Made by a program: the position numbers and the translations under genes. The notes beneath the pieces are model-generated. The model ran no database searches and was not told the DNA's origin. It saw only the letters and a list, made by a program, of their open reading frames with translations. Positions 3,825 to 58,729 of a stretch of DNA of 64,000 nt are shown here, piece after piece. The stretch is from IMG/VR virus record IMGVR_UViG_2706794671_000006; one strand, 5' to 3'. Source of the DNA: a virus. Its lineage: Duplodnaviria > Heunggongvirae > Uroviricota > Caudoviricetes. Position 1 is the stretch's first letter; each line of letters starts with the position of its first letter.

Positions 3825-6220
3825 ATGACTCAAGTCGCGAAGAAAATTCTGGTGACGTGCGCACTGCCGTACGCTAACGGCTCAATCCACCTCGGCCATA
3901 TGCTGGAGCACATCCAGGCTGATGTCTGGGTTCGTTACCAGCGAATGCGCGGCCACGAGGTTAATTTCATCTGTGCCGACGATGCCCACGGTACGCCAAT
4001 CATGCTGAAAGCACAGCAGCTTGGTATCACACCGGAACAGATGATTGGCGAAATGAGTCAGGAACATCAGACTGATTTCGCAGGCTTTAACATCAGCTAT
4101 GACAACTATCACTCGACGCACAGCGAAGAGAACCGTCAGTTGTCCGAGCTTATCTACTCTCGCCTGAAAGAAAACGGTTTTATTAAAAACCGCACCATCT
4201 CACAGCTGTACGATCCGGAAAAATGCATGTTCCTGCCGGACCGTTTTGTAAAAGGCACCTGCCCGAAATGTAAATCCCCGGATCAATACGGCGATAACTG
4301 CGAAGTCTGCGGCGCGACCTACAGCCCGACTGAACTGATCGAGCCGAAATCGGTGGTTTCTGGCGCTACGCCGGTAATGCGTGATTCTGAACNNNNNNNN
4401 NNNNNNNNNNNNNAATGAGTCAGGAGCATCAGACTGATTTCGCAGGCTTTAACATCAGCTATGACAACTATCACTCGACGCACAGCGAAGAGAACCGCCA
4501 GTTGTCAGAACTTATCTACTCTCGCCTGAAAGAGAACGGTTTTATTAAAAACCGCACCATCTCTCAGCTGTACGATCCGGAAAAAGGCATGTTCCTGCCG
4601 GACCGTTTTGTGAAAGGCACCTGCCCGAAATGTAAATCCCCGGATCAATACGGCGATAACTGCGAAGTCTGCGGCGCGACCTACAGCCCGACTGAATTGA
4701 TCGAGCCGAAATCGGTGGTTTCTGGCGCTACGCCGGTAATGCGTGATTCTGAACACTTCTTCTTTGATCTGCCCTCTTTCAGCGAAATGTTGCAGGCATG
4801 GACCCGCAGCGGTGCGTTGCAGGAGCAGGTGGCAAATAAAATGCAGGAGTGGTTTGAATCTGGCCTGCAACAGTGGGATATCTCCCGCGACGCCCCTTAC
4901 TTCGGTTTTGAAATTCCGAACGCGCCGGGCAAATATTTCTACGTCTGGCTGGACGCGCCGATTGGCTACATGGGTTCTTTCAAGAATCTGTGCGACAAGC
5001 GCGGCGACAGCGTAAGCTTCGACGAATACTGGAAGAAAGACTCCACCGCCGAGCTGTACCACTTCATCGGCAAAGATATCGTTTACTTCCACAGTCTGTT
5101 CTGGCCTGCCATGCTGGAAGGCAGCAACTTCCGCAAGCCGACCAACCTGTTTGTTCACGGCTATGTGACGGTGAACGGCGCGAAGATGTCCAAGTCTCGC
5201 GGCACCTTTATTAAAGCCAGCACCTGGCTGAATCATTTTGACGCTGACAGCCTGCGTTACTACTACACTGCGAAACTCTCTTCGCGCATTGATGATATCG
5301 ATCTCAACCTGGAAGATTTCGTTCAGCGCGTGAATGCCGATATCGTGAACAAAGTGGTTAACCTGGCCTCCCGTAATGCAGGCTTTATCAACAAGCGTTT
5401 TGACGGCGTGCTGACAAGCGAACTGGCTGACCCGCAACTGTACAAAACCTTTACTGATGCCGCTGAAGTGATTGGCGAAGCATGGGAAAGCCGCGAATTT
5501 GGTAAAGCTATCCGTGAAATCATGGCATTGGCTGACCTGGCTAATCGCTATGTCGATGAACAGGCTCCGTGGGTGGTGGCGAAGCAGGAAGGTCGCGATG
5601 CAGATCTGCAGGCGATTTGCTCTATGGGCATTAACCTGTTCCGCGTGCTGATGACGTACCTGAAACCGGTACTGCCGAAACTGACTGAACGTGCAGAAGC
5701 ATTCCTGAATACAGAACTGACCTGGGATGGTATCCAGCAACCGCTTCTGGGCCATAAAGTGAATCCGTTCAAGGCACTGTATAACCGTATCGATATGAAA
5801 CTGGTGGAAGCACTGGTGGAAGCATCCAAAGAAGAAGTGAAAGCCACAGCTGCACCGGTAACTGGCCCACTGGCTGACGAACCGATTCAGGAAACCATCA
5901 CCTTTGACGACTTCGCCAAAGTTGACCTGCGTGTGGCGCTGATTGAAAACGCGGAGTTTGTCGAAGGTTCTGACAAACTGCTTCGCCTGACGCTGGATCT
6001 CGGTGGTGAAAAGCGTAATGTCTTCTCAGGCATCCGTTCCGCTTATCCAGATCCACAGGCACTGATTGGTCGTCACACCATTATGGTGGCTAACCTGGCA
6101 CCACGTAAAATGCGCTTCGGTATCTCTGAAGGCATGGTGATGGCTGCCGGTCCTGGCGGGAAAGATATCTTCCTGTTAAGCCCGGATGCTGGTGCTAAAC
6201 CTGGCCACCAGGTTAAGTAA
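3825..6220 (+). CDS. metG: methionyl-tRNA synthetase, frame interrupted by scaffold gap and duplicated flank
   Basis: HLGH motif (SIHLGHM), KMSKS motif, zinc knuckle CPKC...CEVC, C-terminal tRNA-binding domain; ORF track splits it at the N run. Confidence 0.9.
4052..4754. repeat. ~340 bp of metG present on both sides of the gap (approx 4052-4392 and 4414-4754), ~97% identical
   Basis: Both flanks encode [18 protein letters not shown]...PVMRDSE; 9 nucleotide differences, 8 synonymous, 1 Cys/Gly (EKC vs EKG). Confidence 0.85.
4393..4413. other. run of 21 N (assembly/scaffold gap) inside metG
   Basis: Literal n characters in the sequence. Confidence 0.99.
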
Positions 6221-6717: not shown

Positions 6718-6903
6718 ATGCTTAAAGAAGACTCATATCTACTAAAGGCGCTTGAAATGAGTGGCGTTGAACCTACAGTGAAAAACGCTCACGATATCTA
6801 CCTTCAGTTTTCGACAGAGCTGAAACAGCTCATAAATAAATATGGAGTGAACGACTCCAGCGTCAAAGCCATGATAGATGATGAATTAGACCATCTCATC
6901 TAA
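6718..6903 (+). CDS. hypothetical small protein
   Basis: 61 aa ORF with ACGGAG RBS. Confidence 0.5.
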   Translation: MLKEDSYLLKALEMSGVEPTVKNAHDIYLQFSTELKQLINKYGVNDSSVKAMIDDELDHLI

Positions 6904-6959
6904 TCAAACCGTTGATAATGGCGGTCACAATTTGATTCTTTTCTATAAGAACCCGTTGA

Positions 6960-7800
6960 TCGCCACTACTACCCTCCCATACCAGCAATCACATCATTAA
7001 ATATCAATAGGTTATGGTTGTTTATACCAATAAGAAAACAACTAAATAACAGATCAACGAAACATCAACGCTTTCTCCCGATTTGGTCTAAAAAATTGAC
7101 GTTATCACACATCACTTCTTATACCCGTAATTCTACGCAGCAGATAGCGCCACAGCGTCCAAATTTCACCACAGACGACTCAACACACTACCAACAAAAA
7201 CACACGCTCAAAATCGCTCCCGTTGCGTTACACAACCATATAAACAACTTATTTTCAGGCATAACAAAACAACCAAATAACACATATGCCATTACCCAAA
7301 ACAACCAACCTCTTTATGGCAGGCTACCGAAAAGACCCACCTCTTCTCCCCAGGCTACCGGACAACCAACCTAACTTTCACAGGCAATCCGAAAACATTC
7401 ATACGCGCGATACCCACGACACGCCATTACCCAAACAGCGAAGAAACACCTGAACCGCTGAAACCCTAACGAAGCCTGTAACCGCAAGGTTTCTCTCAAT
7501 CCCAAAAGACACGAAACATAACAATCACGGGAAACGCCATTACCCAATACACGAATAACTACAAAAGCCTTCACACACTCCAGACAAACAACTCAAACAC
7601 AATAACGAAAGCAATCGCCCACCTGCCATTACTCCATACACGGAGAAGAACAATCACCAAAACGACGAGAACACCCCCATAGAAGAACCACCGCAAAACT
7701 AACGAAACCACATACACCGACAGAGAAAACAACACACCCAATTCACCAACAGAAATAGTCGCCGTATAGAACATTCTGGAAGGAGTGAGCATTAACGCCT
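6960..7800. other. AC-rich (G/T-poor on plus strand) non-coding tract with iterated CGCCATTACCCAA and CAGGCTACCG motifs
   Basis: Extreme strand composition skew read directly; ORFs called here have no RBS and low-complexity translations. Confidence 0.6.
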
Positions 7801-7871
7801 ATAGAGAGGTTGAGACAGATAAAACACAACATGTATAGCGAAGAAGCCAGGTATGTATAAGTGGAGAGGGA

Positions 7872-7896
7872 AGGAGGTGTGTCGCCTCCTTTTTCG
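7872..7896 (+). terminator. terminator-like hairpin after AC-rich tract
   Basis: AGGAGG-TGTGTCG-CCTCCT followed by TTTTCG. Confidence 0.45.
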
Positions 7897-8444
7897 TATT
7901 TATTCAACATCTTACCATCACCCCCCGTAACACCCCTACGGTCAGCCTTCGGTCCATACAGAGAAAAGGTTGCATACGCTACAGAAACGGCTGGGGATTT
8001 TCAGGGAAACGGTCGAGTTGCCTGTGTGGATTTCGGGAAAAGGCTCGATGCCGGTTCTGGAACGGCGGCGTACCGGTATAGCGAGAGAGTTGCAGCTACC
8101 CACCTGTAATGTGCGGGAAGAAGAGAGGCGCTCACGTGCAGGCTGACTTGCTTACCGCTGGATTCCCTCTGAATGCCAGATACAGCGTAATTGTGCCAGA
8201 CAGCCAGCGGGTCACAATCGATTTCAGTAGGTTTTCGGGGAGAGGATTATTCTACCCACCAGCCCCGCGGCGCGCGTAGAGCAGAATATCGTAAATACTG
8301 GCTCTCGTGTCGTTCCCGGATATTCACTGCCCAGCCTGGCTTTCCCGACATAAAATCCTTTTTCGCCTTTATCTTATTGCGATAATAACACCAACAAGTA
8401 AACAGCATATTTAGACGTTATAGAAACGAAGTGAGGATGAAGAG

Positions 8445-8663
8445 ATGATTAAGATGCCTGTGACGGTTGAGGTGTGGGGCGTGGATTCCCTGGCTGAGTG
8501 TCTGGATGCAGTGGGGCCGGAGTTGTACCGCAAGTTGTGGTCGTTCGTCCCGGCAGAAGGGGAATCGCCCAAAGGGAAGGATATCTGGCACCTGCTGAGT
8601 GAAGATGAAAAGCGGGAGCTGGTGGGCGCGGTACACAGCGAGTTCCCGGACGACCAAGATTAA
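8445..8663 (+). CDS. hypothetical acidic small protein
   Basis: 72 aa, GAGGA RBS 8 nt upstream, terminator follows. Confidence 0.6.
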   Translation: MIKMPVTVEVWGVDSLAECLDAVGPELYRKLWSFVPAEGESPKGKDIWHLLSEDEKRELVGAVHSEFPDDQD

Positions 8664-8726: not shown

Positions 8727-8790
8727 CGATATACTTTGTGGCCGTTTTCTTACTGGTATTGTTTACGTAATTCAGAAAACAACATGTTTA
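8727..8790 (+). promoter_or_regulatory. ~60 bp promoter-like segment, copy 1 (TTGTGGCCG...TATTGTTTACG + degenerate motif A)
   Basis: Near-identical to 9228-9285; contains -35/-10-like hexamers. Confidence 0.4.
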
Positions 8791-8801
8791 AGGATTGCTT
8801 T

Positions 8802-9131: not shown

Positions 9132-9227
9132 GCCCAACCAAAGCCAGCATTGCTGGCTTAACTTCATCTGTAGCCGCAGGGAAGAACCTGCATATCGCTC
9201 ATGCGCCTGATCAATATGCTTTGTAGC

Positions 9228-9285
9228 CGTTTTCTTACTGGTATTATTTACGCCATTGAGAAAACAAGTTGTTTACGGAGTTGTG
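9228..9285 (+). promoter_or_regulatory. ~60 bp promoter-like segment, copy 2, ending in motif A GAAAACAAGTTGTTTAC
   Basis: Direct repeat of 8727-8790; motif A abuts the ACGGAG RBS of the next gene. Confidence 0.4.
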
Positions 9286-10758: not shown

Positions 10759-10927
10759 TTATTAAGGCCACCACTGCTGGTGGCCTTAAATGACCATCCT
10801 GTTTCCCGCAGGCTAAAAACACCAACCTCTTACCTCCAGGCAACCGACAAACCCACCTGTTCCCGTCCGGCTACCGCAACTTTCCACTTTGACGCCTTAT
10901 TCGTACAACGATAATTAACGCCAACAA

Positions 10928-10943
10928 GAAAACAATTTGTTAT
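10928..10943 (+). promoter_or_regulatory. motif A (GAAAACAATTTGTTAT)
   Basis: 20 nt upstream of the 10963 start, just before AAGGAA RBS. Confidence 0.45.
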
Positions 10944-35341: not shown

Positions 35342-36131
35342 TAAAGCAATCCCTGAGCTTGGCTCTGACGTTATGCAGCAAATCTATCTCTGCGCCATAA
35401 ATCGCTACCCTAATGAAGCGTGTGGCTTTCTGGTTAGAACTAATGGCGACAAATATCGCTTTATGGAAGCGCGGAATGTTTCGGAGAACCCGCAGAACAC
35501 TTTTGTAATGCACGTTGACGACATTATGGCGGCTGAGGATGCGGGTGATGTTATCGCAATCTGGCATTCACATACTGATGAATCAGCAGAAGCATCTGAT
35601 GCCGATCGTGCAGGCTGCGAAGCGACGGAAGTTCCGTGGATGATTCTGGCTATTCGCAAGAATGTTGAGGGAGATGCCCCTTTCCATTTTAGCGAGATGA
35701 ATGTGATCACACCTGATGGTTTCGAAATGCCATACCTGTGCAGACCGTATGTATTTGGCGTATTCGATTGCTGGATGTTGTGTCGGGACTATTTGAAGCG
35801 TGAGTTTAACGTCGAACTAAACCCGAACGCACACCTGCATATTCCATCGTGGTACACCGGCGATAACGACATTCTCGACCAGAACTACCGAAACGAAGGA
35901 TTGGTACGGCTTGCGCCCGGAACAGAACCTCAACGTGGGGACGTCTTCTTTATCCAATACGGAAAAATGCCTGACCACTGTGCGGTTTATATCGGCGATG
36001 GAATGATTCTTCATCACCAGATCGACCGCCTTAGTTGTCGTGCTTATTACGGCGGGATGTATCAGAAACATACGACGCATCACTTGCGTCACAGAGACTT
36101 GCTCAAGGGAGATGAGACGTGTCTGAGTTAG
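35307..36131 (+). CDS. tail assembly protein (lambda K-like; JAMM/MPN + NlpC/P60 domains)
   Basis: JAMM motif IWHSHTDESAEASDAD; NlpC/P60-like Cys in FDCWMLCRDY. Start uncertain. Confidence 0.8.
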   Translation: MVDLLELRGMGNKAIPELGSDVMQQIYLCAINRYPNEACGFLVRTNGDKYRFMEARNVSENPQNTFVMHVDDIMAAEDAGDVIAIWHSHTDESAEASDADRAGCEATEVPWMILAIRKNVEGDAPFHFSEMNVITPDGFEMPYLCRPYVFGVFDCWMLCRDYLKREFNVELNPNAHLHIPSWYTGDNDILDQNYRNEGLVRLAPGTEPQRGDVFFIQYGKMPDHCAVYIGDGMILHHQIDRLSCRAYYGGMYQKHTTHHLRHRDLLKGDETCLS

Positions 36132-36712
36132 TTCATGTGCAGCTTGGCGGCCCTATGGCCAAACATTTTGGCCGCCACTGGCATCTAAAGGTGCGCAATA
36201 CAAAACAGGCTCTGGATTTAATTGAGGCCAATAAGCCTGGTTTTAAAGCATGGATGAAGCGCAATATCAAAACCTATGACAGATACCACATCCAGATCAC
36301 CAATAAACAGGGCCACAAGTGGTCTGTGGACGAGAGTGAATATCAGATGATGGGGCAGTCTGACAACATTGCCAAAATCCGCATTACCCCTGTTCCGCGA
36401 GGAAGCGGCGGATCTGCTTTTGGGTGGTTTCAGACGGTAGTAGGGGCCGCTTTGTTGGTTGTATCGGCGGTAATGATGCCCGCTCTTGCCCCTCTCGGTT
36501 TGTCACTGATGATGGGCGGTATAGCGCAAATCATATCTCCGCAAGCCACTAACGAAAGTGTGAGGCAGGCGGATAACTCGAACTCTTATTACTTTGATGG
36601 ACCTCAAAACACAACAAACCAGGGGAACCCTGTACAGCTTATCTATGGCGAGGAAATTTTAGTTGGCTCACAGGTCGTGAGTTCTTCTATCACCATCGAC
36701 CAGCTTATGTAA
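36119..36712 (+). CDS. tail assembly protein (lambda I-like)
   Basis: 197 aa with hydrophobic C-terminal half, between K-like and J-like genes. Confidence 0.65.
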   Translation: MSELVHVQLGGPMAKHFGRHWHLKVRNTKQALDLIEANKPGFKAWMKRNIKTYDRYHIQITNKQGHKWSVDESEYQMMGQSDNIAKIRITPVPRGSGGSAFGWFQTVVGAALLVVSAVMMPALAPLGLSLMMGGIAQIISPQATNESVRQADNSNSYYFDGPQNTTNQGNPVQLIYGEEILVGSQVVSSSITIDQLM

Positions 36713-36722
36713 TCAAGGATTT

Positions 36723-39700
36723 TTGGACATGGAACAGTTCAAGAAGAAAAAGTTACCTCTATTAATTGCAGGTTCTGGTGGCAAAAAAAGTAGCAAAAGC
36801 TCTAGTCGCACACCAGTTGAAGCAGACGATACCGTAAATTCTCGTGCTATGGCCTCTATTCTCGATCTTCTTGGAGAAGGCGTAATTGGCGGCTTGGTAA
36901 ATGGCGCAAGATCTATTTTTGTCGACGATTTGCCCATAGTAAATGAAGACGGCTCTTCAAACTTTAGCGGAATTTCATGGGATTTTCGAGACGGCTCGCA
37001 AGACCAGACACCAATGTCTGGCTTTGATTTCGTCGAAACACCTAAATCGATCAATATCCAACTAAAGAAATCGCATTATGTGACGGTTTCAATAGATAAC
37101 GATGAGGCCGATCGTGTTCGAGTCATCATGAAGTTCCCTTCTCTGCGAAGAATAGACCAAAAAACGGGTGATACAAACGGCACTACCGTTGAGTATAAGT
37201 TCCAGATCTCAAATGGAGATTCAACATTTGTAGATGTGGTCGCAGAAGGTGAAAAAAACGTTGGTATTAAGTTAACAGCGAAGAAAACCGGTGCTTATTA
37301 TCGTAGTTATGAGCTGAAGTTACCCAAGCCAGGTCGGGCATACAGTGTTCGAGTAGTTCGTATTACTGATGATAACAGCGGTCAGTATCTTTATAACGAT
37401 ACATGGGTGGACTCAATCGGTGAGATCGTTGATACACCGATGAACTACCCAAACTCTGCGTTGGTGGGACTGAAGGTTAATTCTGAGCAGTTTGGCGGCT
37501 CTATGCCTTCTCGTTCCTATCTGGTGCGGGGATTAAAAATTCGCGTACCATCAAACTACAACGAGGCTAGCAACACTTATGATGGCGTATGGGATGGCTC
37601 TTTTAAGCTGTTGTCATCTTCAAACCCTGCGTGGATTCTCTTCGACTTGCTTACCAATTCTCGATATGGGCTTGGTCAGTATGTGTCGGAATCTATGATT
37701 GATCTCGGCCAACTGTACCAGATCGGTCGATATTGTGACGAAGAGGTTGATGATGGCTTTGGTGGTAAAGAGAAACGCTTTGCAATCAATACGCAGATCA
37801 CCAGTAGACAGGATGCATACCGACTAATTCAGGATATTGCCGGTGCATTCCGCGGCATGGTGTTTTGGGCTGGTGGCATGGTTAACATCATGCAGGATAG
37901 CCCATCAGATCCAGTAATGATGTTTACCAACTCGAACGTCAAAGATGGATTGTTTACCTATAAAGGTTCTGCGCGTAAAGATCGCCCATCCGTTGCGCTC
38001 GTAACCTACAACAACAAGGAGGACGGTTATAAGCAAAACATTGAGTACGTTGAAGATCAGGACGCAATGCGCCGTTATGGTGAGCGTAAAACAGAAGTCG
38101 TAGCATTTGGATGTACAAGCCGAGGCCAGGCTCACCGAGTTGGTTTGTGGCTTTTGTATACCGCCAGAATGGAGTCGGATGTAATTACATTTACTGCCGG
38201 TTTAGACGCCTCATTTCTGATGCCCGGTGAAACCGTTCTGATTCAGAACAAATATCGTGCAGGTAAACGTAACTCCGGTCGAATTGTGGAGTTTACCAAA
38301 AACAGCATCACTCTCGATGCGCCTGTGTCGTTAGCTAAAAGCGGCAGCTTTATTCGGATATTGAATCAGGAAGGCAAAATCGTTGAACGCGATGTTCTTG
38401 AAACTGGCGAAAACATAACAAAGGTTACGTTTTCAAAAGCTCTGTCGTCAGCGGAAACGCCTGTTTTGAACGGTGTATGGACAATCACAGAACCAGATCT
38501 CGAACCTATGCGCGTTCGCATCGTTAACATCGCTCAGGGGGAAACGTCGGGTAGCTTTGACATCACCGCTGTTGAGAACAATCCGTCTAAATATGAGGCA
38601 ATCGACAATGGTGCAACGCTTATCCCGCAGAATACGACGGTATTGGACCCGACTTACTCCAAGCCGTCTAATTTGCAAATCACCGAAGGGACTTATCTCT
38701 CAAGCCCAGGCAACCTGTCAGTAAAACTGACTGCAACATGGGAAGGGAAATCTCCAGAGTATTGGATCAGTTGGCGACGTTCTGATGAAAACAATGTATC
38801 GAACTGGCAATCGGCACGTGTAACCGAAGAGCAATACGAAATCGTTAATGTCGCGGAGAATGGACGCTACGACTTCCAACTGTATGCGGTTTCATTCAAC
38901 GGTAAAAAAACAGAGATTATCAGTACCGTTTATCAGGTGCTGGGCACAATGACACCGCCGGATGCACCAACGTCATTAACGGCCGTTGGAGACTATCGTA
39001 ATGTGATACTGAATTGGGTTAATCCAGATTCGGTAGACCTTGATCACATTAATGTTTACGCATCCCAGACCAACAATCTGGATACGGCGAAACTGATCGC
39101 AGAGTCTGCAAGCACCACCTTTACACATTCTGGTCTTGGGGATAGTGAAACTTGGTATTACTGGGTTAGATCAGCAAATAAGCGTGGCATGTTGAGTCGC
39201 CCAAACTCAAATCTTGGTACAGAGGCCACAACGCGAGATGTTCTTTCATTTTTAGCCAATAAAATTACCTCGTCAGAACTTGGCCAGGCTTTAAATGAGG
39301 AAATTGACAGTAAGGCTTCTCAACAAGCTGTTGATGAAATCAATAATCATATCGATCAGAGCGTCGAATCTCTGGAAGGTGAAATTTCCGCATTAAATAA
39401 GGAGCTAACGAGTAGTATCGATGAGTTCAAAACATCGTTTACTGAACGCAGCGAGACACTGGAGAATGCGCAAAGCGAGCTTAGAACGGAAGTTTCTAGC
39501 ACTCGGGAAAAAGTAGATGATGCATTACGACAAGTTGAAAATTCAAATGCAGCACTTATTGAACTACGTAATACAGTATCAAAACAAGGTGATTCTGTTG
39601 CTGGTGTCGTAGAAGCAGCAAATGCGGCACTTGAAAATGCATCATCTTTAATTGCCGAAGAGCGTAAAGTTCGTGCACAAGCAGATCTAGCGAATGCTAA

Positions 39701-48410: not shown

Positions 48411-48491
48411 TATTAAGTCCTTACCAAATCTATGTACCTATCATTAAACCTTTACACAGCAGCCGTAGGCATTTAGGCTATATCACATATA

Positions 48492-58482: not shown

Positions 58483-58557
58483 GATGGTGTAGCTCAGCGG
58501 TAGAGCAGTTGGCTGTTAACCAATTGGTCGGTGGTTCGAATCCACCCACCATCGCCA
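58483..58557 (+). tRNA. tRNA-Asn (anticodon GTT)
   Basis: Manual fold: acceptor GATGGTG/CACCATC, anticodon loop CTGTTAA, T-arm GGTGG-TTCGAAT-CCACC, 3' GCCA. Confidence 0.8.
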
Positions 58558-58562
58558 ATTTA

Positions 58563-58649
58563 GGGGAGTTAGTCCGTAGAGGTAGCGGGGTAGACTGTAA
58601 ATCTACTGTCATTGCGACTCGGGTGGTTCGACTCTATCACTCCCCACCA
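58563..58649 (+). tRNA. tRNA-Tyr (anticodon GTA), type II with long variable arm
   Basis: Acceptor GGGGAGT/ACTCCCC, anticodon stem GTAGA/TCTAC with loop CTGTAAA, T-loop TTCGACT, 3' ACCA. Confidence 0.75.
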
Positions 58650-58653
58650 AATT

Positions 58654-58729
58654 GCCGATTTAGCTCAGTTGGTAGAGCAGTCGCTTTGTAAGCGAATGGT
58701 CATCGGTTCGATCCCGTTAATCGGCACCA
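58654..58729 (+). tRNA. tRNA-Thr (anticodon TGT)
   Basis: Acceptor GCCGATT/AATCGGC, D-arm GCTCAGTTGGTAGAGC, anticodon loop TTTGTAA, T-loop TTCGATC, 3' ACCA. Confidence 0.75.

Follow-up and report, generated by a model that had tools for sequence, protein, structure and literature searches.

What can a stretch of phage DNA do when it encodes no protein and one of its strands is made mostly of A and C? This question is raised by IMG/VR virus record IMGVR_UViG_2706794671_000006, a 64,000-nt stretch of DNA (hereafter the window, to which all positions and strands refer). A preliminary description of this record had singled out an A/C-rich tract with iterated motifs at 6960-7896. Over positions 6900-8000, its identity is 100% with Escherichia phage CMS-2020a (CP054387.1), 94-97% with phages PhiR41_1 and Cyrano, and ~70% with Salmonella phage SSU5. 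The tract is carried by 243-246 of 5426 complete Escherichia coli genomes, always on plasmids of ~100-140 kb (mostly ~110 kb) and never on chromosomes, where no similarity to it was found even at E=10. Based on these phage matches and on the constant plasmid location in E. coli, the window is an SSU5-type (SSU5-like) phage-plasmid. In the RefSeq annotation, the tract falls within a gene-free gap of 1543 nt that extends from a 61-aa gene (end 6903) to a 72-aa gene (start 8445). Our analysis of the sequence indicates that SSU5-type phage-plasmids of enteric bacteria share this non-coding tract as a conserved part of their core. Its most likely mode of action is as a nearly structure-free RNA, which could be a giant loading zone for the termination factor Rho.

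Composition, conservation and coding status of the tract

The plus strand of 7130-7760 consists of 40.4% A, 33.3% C, 12.0% G and 14.3% T, and A+C amounts to 72-80% over the core of the tract (7130-7800). In 200-nt windows taken across the 64 kb, the A+C fraction averages 0.503 (standard deviation, 0.046) and exceeds 0.72 only at 7141-7803, where it peaks at 0.805. Hence, the A/C-rich tract of the preliminary description stands. No second A+C tract of that kind was found in a further 41 kb present outside the window in a 97%-identical relative, for a total of ~105 kb, and a G/T-rich partner tract is missing both from the window and from those 41 kb. The earlier statement that the plus strand is almost devoid of G and T captured a strong A/C excess, but the wording was overstated, since runs made only of A and C are at most 15-17 nt long (four of the six longest in the window fall in the tract). 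Similarly, the compositional anomaly does begin at ~6960, with a C-rich block, but it ends at ~7800, and positions 7800-7896 are not A/C-rich. The features of the gap, together with a related cluster of repeats further to the right, are the following:

6905-6967, unstranded: left boundary of the gap, with two CCGTTGAY words flanking an invariant TTTCTATAAGA (TATAAG at 6944-6949), in invariant alignment columns
6960-7010, plus strand: C-rich, G-poor block inside a C>G bubble (start of its first 78-nt window, 6845)
7026-7073, unstranded: A/T-rich control segment with the box AATAAGAAAACAACTAAATAACA (7032-7041 = AAGAAAACAA) and two TCAACG words
7077-7125, plus strand: promoter-like element with an A-tract, TTGACG (7096-7101), an 18-nt variable spacer and TATACC (7120-7125)
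7130-7800, plus strand: A/C-rich core, non-coding, with 322 of 736 aligned columns invariant in all four lineages compared
7242-7272, unstranded: operator-like palindrome, degenerate here (AAACAACTTATTT) and AAACA-N3-TGTTT in other lineages, with the box AACAAAACAA at 7263-7272
7288-7299, plus strand: first copy of GCCATTACCCAA, exact match
7305-7394, plus strand: three ~30-nt units of the form CC.ACCT-N8-CAGGC.A(CCG), 31 and 30 nt apart, the first two near-invariant across lineages
7423-7434, plus strand: second copy of GCCATTACCCAA, exact match
7536-7547, plus strand: third copy of GCCATTACCCAA, exact match
7604-7675, plus strand: most conserved block, 72 nt near-invariant, with the fourth copy, GCCATTACTCCA (7625-7636), followed by ATACACGGAGAAGAAC and CCAAAACGACGAGAAC
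7856-7898, plus strand: conserved GTATAAGTGG and the hairpin GGGAAGGAGGTG-TGT-CGCCTCCTTTTT (7868-7894) with a T-run
10794-10880, plus strand: second cluster of three ~30-nt units, upstream of the promoter of a 160-aa gene

To assess conservation, we aligned 23 non-redundant copies of the gap, which fall into four lineages with 63-78% mutual identity. All 23 copies are A/C-rich at the same place. Identity between lineages is 0.61-0.71 in the tract, as compared to 0.33-0.49 at the third codon positions of the adjacent genes, which are near saturation. Moreover, the columns that do vary still contain 0.60-0.68 A+C in every lineage, versus 0.46-0.49 in adjacent non-coding DNA. Because identity exceeds that of third codon positions and the A+C bias persists at variable columns, the tract is under purifying selection that maintains both its sequence and its strand-specific composition. 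Scans for more distant lineages, either anchored on proteins in species genomes or run twice with DNA patterns on viral contigs, mostly recovered the same four lineages, together with a few contigs that are only 67-75% identical to them.

The repeated words are part of what is conserved. The spaced repeats noticed earlier are real: exact copies of GCCATTACYCMA start at 7288, 7423, 7536 and 7625, and allowing one mismatch yields six matches in the window versus 0.97 expected. Copies of GCCATTAC number four here and up to six in the SSU5 lineage, and the spacing between them shifts across lineages through indels of 1-23 nt. The CAGGCTACCG-like words, as well as their recurrence at ~10800-10880, were also confirmed, and they turn out to form part of the ~30-nt units CC.ACCT-N8-CAGGC.A. 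Three of these units lie at 7305-7394 and three at 10794-10880, with none elsewhere in the ~105 kb. They are spaced 28-31 bp apart and are mutually only 64-75% alike. Every copy of every repeated word is on the plus strand. We rejected the view of the tract as a decayed 30-nt tandem array, as autocorrelation peaks are weak and inconsistent between lineages and no global periodicity exists. A paralogue of the 160-aa gene promoter module within the tract was likewise rejected, its alignment score equalling that of shuffled sequences (z = 0.2).

A protein-coding or recently decayed gene, specifying either a low-complexity protein rich in Thr, Pro, Asn, Gln and His or a hydrophobic protein on the minus strand, was also considered, since long open frames exist here and some records do annotate open reading frames in this place (CYRAN_103, SSU5_108, PhiR41_1). 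Stop triplets are also somewhat depleted relative to shuffles (z -1.1 to -3.9). However, stop codons need T and G, and long open runs are therefore found in all three plus-strand frames. Even relatives with 94-97% identity differ in the choice and the length of the open frame. Substitutions within the individual lineages lack 3-nt periodicity in all four cases (chi-square p = 0.29-0.89), and indels are mostly of 1, 2, 4, 10 and 11 nt. In addition, the RefSeq annotation is empty here in most records. The depletion of stop triplets is probably explained by T residues locked into the repeated words ATTAC and CTAC. These data uphold the earlier non-coding call and reject coding potential on both strands, including the conserved minus-strand frame that would have overturned it, so that a gene at this site is hardly credible.

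The tract as a proposed Rho-loading zone

The RNA read from the plus strand is predicted to fold poorly. Its folding energy is -85.6 kcal/mol for 671 nt (-0.128 per nt), versus -170.7 kcal/mol (-0.25 per nt) for the complementary strand, and across lineages the values per nt are -0.13 to -0.18 and -0.25 to -0.31 kcal/mol, respectively. This low folding follows from composition alone, and no additional selection against structure was seen relative to dinucleotide shuffles (z = -1.9). The terminator-like hairpin followed by a T-run, which had been proposed to end the tract, was found at 7868-7894, where 12 pairs are followed by TTTTTCG. The 10 predicted pairs were compared among 15 distinct sequences, and each of them is broken in only 0-2 cases. 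The pairs are mostly G-U or G-C, and one is a compensatory change between GC and AU. As a G-U pair in one strand corresponds to an A-C mismatch in the other, the hairpin is read as a feature of plus-strand RNA. It has the make-up of an intrinsic terminator in this element; three of the four lineages retain the hairpin with a weak T/U-run.

At the other end of the tract, the hexamers TTGACG and TATACC are invariant in the four lineages, and we read the 7077-7125 element as a putative rightward sigma-70-like promoter. Three functions had been put forward at the outset, namely an iteron-type origin, a centromere-like site and an unusual C/A-rich non-coding RNA. The last one is the best supported by the promoter-like element, the structure-free plus strand and the plus-strand hairpin. 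The location of all repeats on the plus strand and the persistence of the A+C bias at diverged positions further back it. Our searches of the literature found no mention of the tract, and no Rfam family describes it: Rfam 15 gave no hit at gathering scores in the window, none up to E=10 for 6800-8500, and only noise for SSU5.

How could such an RNA work? The reading that we tentatively rank first, with modest confidence, is that of an untranslated and structure-free stretch of transcript, which would act in cis by loading Rho and insulating the early genes. The A/T-rich control region (6905-7125) with its sigma-70-like rightward promoter would lead into ~670 nt of almost only A and C, and the unit would be closed by the plus-strand hairpin at 7868-7894. 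A plus-strand transcript starting in or entering this region would present almost no start codons and almost no folding, and such a naked transcript could serve as an outsized entry (rut) zone for Rho. Together, the Rho zone and the terminal hairpin would halt transcription at the junction where the variable cargo, on the left, gives way to the conserved early genes, on the right. These early genes each have their own promoter and operator. In this reading, the tract would act as a transcriptional insulator or attenuator. Moreover, the conservation of GCCAUUAC and of the 30-nt units is higher than a signal based on composition only would call for, which suggests that these words could be docking sites for a phage or host factor modulating the termination step. 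We know of no binding site matched by GCCAUUAC or by CC.ACCU-N8-CAGGCUACCG.

The strand asymmetry is of the kind associated with Rho. Using the 78-nt window of Nadiras et al. (2018; PMC6144790), we found a single unbroken plus-strand C>G bubble, whose first and last windows start at 6845 and 7734. It has a length of 890 positions, spanning ~970 nt, and an area of 16,100 %.bp. No other bubble in the window is as large, and its area amounts to 23 times the threshold of 700 %.bp. The third-largest plus-strand C>G bubble covers the second cluster of ~30-nt units (10794-10880). In that study, every tested template with a bubble larger than 78 bp or 700 %.bp terminated in a Rho-dependent manner in vitro (Nadiras et al., 2018). 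Thus, the tract combines a C>G skew extending over at least ~78 nt with a transcript that is untranslated and poorly structured, both of which characterize rut sites. Like lambda tR1 and the C>G-bubble terminators of E. coli and Salmonella (PMC6144790), it is untranslated, unstructured and marked by an unbroken C excess over G; it also precedes early phage genes and has a pause or termination hairpin downstream. Unlike them, its bubble covers 890 positions instead of the 20-355 bp of the tested set, its commonest base is A, its YC-dimer chains are not enriched, and its primary sequence and repeated words are conserved.

Several observations weigh against a Rho-loading insulator. The [(YC)N9-13]n pattern expected of a rut site is not apparent, with 0 six-dimer YC chains in 6950-7800 (our own rough estimate, made from the YC density, would be ~3), and YC dimers do not exceed the expectation from composition. 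The 7077-7125 element is not listed by a strict consensus promoter scan, and its direction is ambiguous, as the TATACC bases read TATAAG on the minus strand (7123-7118). Furthermore, a terminator needs neither 670 nt nor 46% invariant columns, and a promoter firing into its own terminator zone would be odd in the absence of regulation. The position of the second cluster of ~30-nt units also fits poorly. It adjoins the upstream side of the 160-aa gene promoter TTTGAC-N16-GATAAT. The cluster is conserved in SSU5 and in one other lineage, where it is sited between a small leftward gene and the rightward 160-aa gene and lies right next to the -35 of TTGGAC-N16-GATAAT. Two of its units are identical 30-nt duplicates in one contig. 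In SSU5 and the other lineage, this arrangement looks like a set of upstream regulator sites acting at the DNA level, and no upstream plus-strand promoter was visible by eye.

Expression data for this region come from a single usable source, the RNA sequencing (RNA-seq) of Cyrano in a study of strain LF82 (PMC9928086, table S1), whose low read depth leaves the plus-strand transcript as a prediction; this also counts against the Rho-loading insulator. CYRAN_103, an open reading frame drawn over 7018-7374, has zero reads in LB and at most ~14 fragments per kilobase per million (FPKM) in other conditions. The Cyrano gene upstream of the tract reaches ~57 FPKM, and downstream genes reach 130-220 FPKM in macrophages (PMC9928086). 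The contrast between the upstream gene and the absence of CYRAN_103 reads in LB speaks for an insulator. At this depth, the only conclusion is that lysogens do not contain abundant RNA from the tract. CYRAN_43, a very highly expressed Cyrano gene that we considered, is unrelated cargo and absent from the window.

Alternative functions

A serious rival places the function of the 1.5 kb gap in the DNA itself. According to this reading, which we consider possible and on balance unlikely, the gap is an array of protein sites bound as double-stranded DNA, serving either as a regulator platform or as a lytic origin that is transcription-activated or RNA-primed. By our own judgement, 1.5 kb without genes is unusually long for a phage-derived element, and three families of direct repeats lie in it. 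The ~30-nt units are 28-31 bp apart, and the GGGAAA[AC]GG words in the second half of the gap have spacings (22, 31 and 44 bp) near whole helical turns. A segment with 69% A+T (6985-7100) and inverted TATAAG words adjoins the tract. The second cluster points the same way, in that it abuts a promoter -35 and lies between divergent genes in two lineages. The element also encodes its own replication proteins, including RNase HI. On the other hand, double-stranded sites do not need a strand-specific A+C bias at non-conserved positions, the spacing of the GCCATTAC copies varies between lineages, and global periodicity is absent. The tract adjoins no initiator gene, and none of its neighbours has an assigned function. 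The terminal hairpin is a feature of RNA.

Origins that depend on a transcript are known from ColE1, with RNA II and RNase H, from the R-loop origins oriF and oriG of T4, and from the ori transcript of the lactococcal phage c2. They resemble the gap in having a promoter that leads into a long untranslated region, a gene-free gap with direct repeats, and RNase HI and replication proteins encoded by the element. However, the primer RNAs of ColE1, T4 and c2 are structured, or G-rich where they hybridize, in contrast to the C/A-rich and structure-free RNA of the tract.

The lytic-origin reading also draws on Yersinia. As befits a core part of the element, counts of the tract and of the neighbouring 160-aa gene are near one-to-one in Escherichia (224 vs 219), Enterobacter (90/91), Salmonella (49/49) and Citrobacter (25/25). 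Yersinia is the sole genus that departs from this pattern, as all 55 of its 55 records with the 160-aa gene are without the tract. These records are of the pMT1 type where checked, that is, in CO92 pMT1 and in one 100.9 kb Y. pestis plasmid that were viewed directly. In CO92 pMT1 (36,000-39,000), an IS1541 copy comes after the 160-aa gene, and beyond it are genes located ~30 kb further along in the E. coli element. Because this insertion sequence and the distant genes directly adjoin the neighbouring genes, we read pMT1 as having probably lost the entire block, the tract together with the nucleotide-metabolism (lytic DNA-metabolism) block. Such a joint loss with lytic functions would be in line with a lytic origin.

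We regard as rather unlikely a third reading, in which the tract specifies a discrete RNA of ~0.76 kb (~7133 to 7896) that acts in trans. This RNA would be made early after induction and would provide a structure-free, multivalent platform sequestering or scaffolding a factor that binds single-stranded RNA, either from the host or from the phage, Rho being one candidate. The tract does have a promoter-like element of its own, and its conserved terminal hairpin would shield the RNA at a defined 3' end. In addition, several conserved same-strand words are embedded in unstructured RNA, and conservation is far above what composition alone would give. However, the tract is not abundant in the one available transcriptome, including a condition in which late genes rise, with the reservation that these data are shallow and count only 7018-7374. 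A naked C-rich RNA should, moreover, be terminated by Rho before completion. The binding signatures that we examined are not enriched beyond composition: those of CsrA (GGA) and MazF (ACA) in no lineage, and that of Hfq, (ARN)4, exceeding composition in one of the four. Complementarity to the 16S, 23S and 5S ribosomal RNAs (rRNAs) and to GcvB was no better than in shuffles, the longest complement being 9-11 nt (at most 9 nt for GcvB). This discards a GcvB sponge and an rRNA antisense, and the complementarity test did not bear out GCCATTACCC as an antisense lookalike of 16S rRNA either.

Two further RNA-based candidates were dismissed. Reverse-complemented CAGGCTACCG resembles the ops element of RfaH, but 37 matches to ops with two mismatches occur across the window, and the resemblance is thus not specific. 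A type III antitoxin RNA requires near-identical tandem repeats of ~34-45 nt placed just before a ToxN-like gene, whereas the units are only 64-75% alike; the main tract has no Rfam hit, the 160-aa gene after the second cluster has no Pfam match, and a promoter lies between the repeats and that gene.

A more specific proposal, that a ~0.76 kb structure-free C/A-rich RNA appearing at lytic onset is a trans decoy for Rho or another host factor binding single-stranded RNA, seems to us quite improbable. Its length and repeated words would soak up the factor and thereby relieve termination or silencing across the phage-plasmid. Sponge RNAs that bind proteins through repeated single-stranded motifs include CrcZ and CrcY, with A-rich 'CA' motifs for Hfq, and CsrB and RsmZ, with GGA motifs for CsrA. 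The tract would resemble sponges of the CrcZ or CsrB type in being a long non-coding RNA with conserved short words between linkers and a 3' terminator hairpin. It differs from them in having neither an Rfam match nor GGA or ARN enrichment, and in that its RNA is not abundant in one data set. A 2025 review of Rho regulation (PMC12360218) contains neither the word 'decoy' nor the word 'sponge' and, on that basis, describes no such RNA antagonist of Rho.

Finally, a plasmid-maintenance element, be it an iteron origin, an incompatibility locus or a partition centromere, is very improbable and, like a coding function, close to excluded. It was a natural first thought for non-coding direct repeats on a plasmid with genes for ParB-like proteins, and the tract does share with the RepB-family origin of the same plasmid the use of same-orientation direct repeats in non-coding DNA. 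This RepB-family initiator lies 34 kb away from the tract, with 15 unrelated GTATGCTGTCAGCGGT iterons, a DnaA-box-like ATATCCACA and a GATC-rich stretch, and the tract holds the iterons of the initiator only at chance level, so that the iteron-type origin first suggested is not supported. Compared with this origin, the tract has a different repeat sequence, no adjacent initiator gene, an extreme strand composition and, by eye, no DnaA box. The centromere-like site is left without positive support, as the words of the tract are absent from the region upstream of the ParA-like ATPase and from elsewhere in the element. Moreover, the 55 tract-less Yersinia records are maintained as plasmids. Given that pMT1 is a stable plasmid without the tract, the tract appears to be dispensable for plasmid maintenance there.

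Genomic setting and significance

The 6900-8450 region matches in full 839 PLSDB plasmids, from Klebsiella, Escherichia, Enterobacter, Salmonella (including S. Typhi pHCM2), Citrobacter, Cronobacter and Shigella. The same gene-free gap of ~1.5 kb is found in the four lineages across E. coli, Salmonella, Klebsiella, Enterobacter, Citrobacter and Cronobacter. In all lineages, the tract is positioned at the border between variable cargo and conserved genes, which would suit an insulator. The genes on its left differ by lineage, with metG and apbC in this element and GIY-YIG, DUF262, DUF4145 or DUF1380 genes elsewhere. None of the neighbouring proteins has a known function. In this element, the plasmid metG (4052-4754) is broken by 21 N's (4393-4413), and a 341-nt segment is found on both sides with 97% identity. 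As related plasmids carry an intact metG of 2034 nt, this is a scaffolding artefact or a local duplication. Two large non-phage IncFIB/IncHI1B plasmids of Klebsiella (173 and 246 kb) retain a ~930 bp fragment of the left part of the gap, 94-96% identical to a Klebsiella phage-plasmid and with insertion sequences close by in both of those examined. Partial matches to the gap also occur in further Klebsiella plasmids of 170-260 kb.

The second half of the gap (7897-8444) has a balanced composition, and it showed no consensus RNA fold and no Rfam hit. It contains at 7960-8045 a direct-repeat array of G[GA]GAAA[AC]GG, with three copies here and 1-5 in the other sequences checked, the fewest in the Klebsiella lineage, versus ~0 expected. 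Its spacings of 22, 31 and 44 nt are near whole helical turns, and the array may represent iteron-like sites. Three conserved TATAAG hexamers occur in the gap, at 6944 and 7856 on the plus strand and at 7123 on the minus strand, two of them forming an inverted pair around the A/T-rich segment. Another TATAAG, at 48488, abuts an operator box and resembles a -10 element. This site belongs to a family of early promoters (8734-8794, 9219-9279, 10887-10941, 8365-8405 and 48488) found before each small gene and before the ParA-like gene. They take the form TTTGAC/TTTGTA-N16-GATAAT/TATTAT, followed by ACGCCAWY and an operator-like palindrome, AGAAAACAA-N-TGTTT. The AAGAAAACAA box of the control segment also occurs downstream of early promoters at 8773, 9258 and 10926, and with up to one mismatch it is found 28 times in the window versus 10.6 expected. 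The Chi octamer GCTGGTGG is present in 12 plus-strand and 4 minus-strand copies in the 64 kb, when ~1 is expected per strand. One copy (10776) lies within the operon-end hairpin at 10762-10789, and equivalent Chi-containing hairpins exist in SSU5 and another lineage. Three successive transfer RNA genes are located at 58483-58726, annotated as Asn, Thr and Ser at the equivalent place in Cyrano.

SSU5-type phage-plasmids are common, being present in ~4.5% of complete E. coli genomes and among hundreds of plasmids of Klebsiella, Enterobacter and Salmonella, some of them with resistance genes, and their biology is almost unstudied. The 1.5 kb gap is the most conspicuous conserved non-coding region of these elements; it is mostly unannotated and elsewhere filled with spurious open reading frames. 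If the tract works as a trans-acting structure-free RNA, it would represent a new type of phage regulator. Should it prove to be a lytic origin, it would mark the start site of induction-driven replication. In turn, if the tract is a Rho-loading insulator, it would show how such elements keep lytic genes silent beside expressed cargo.

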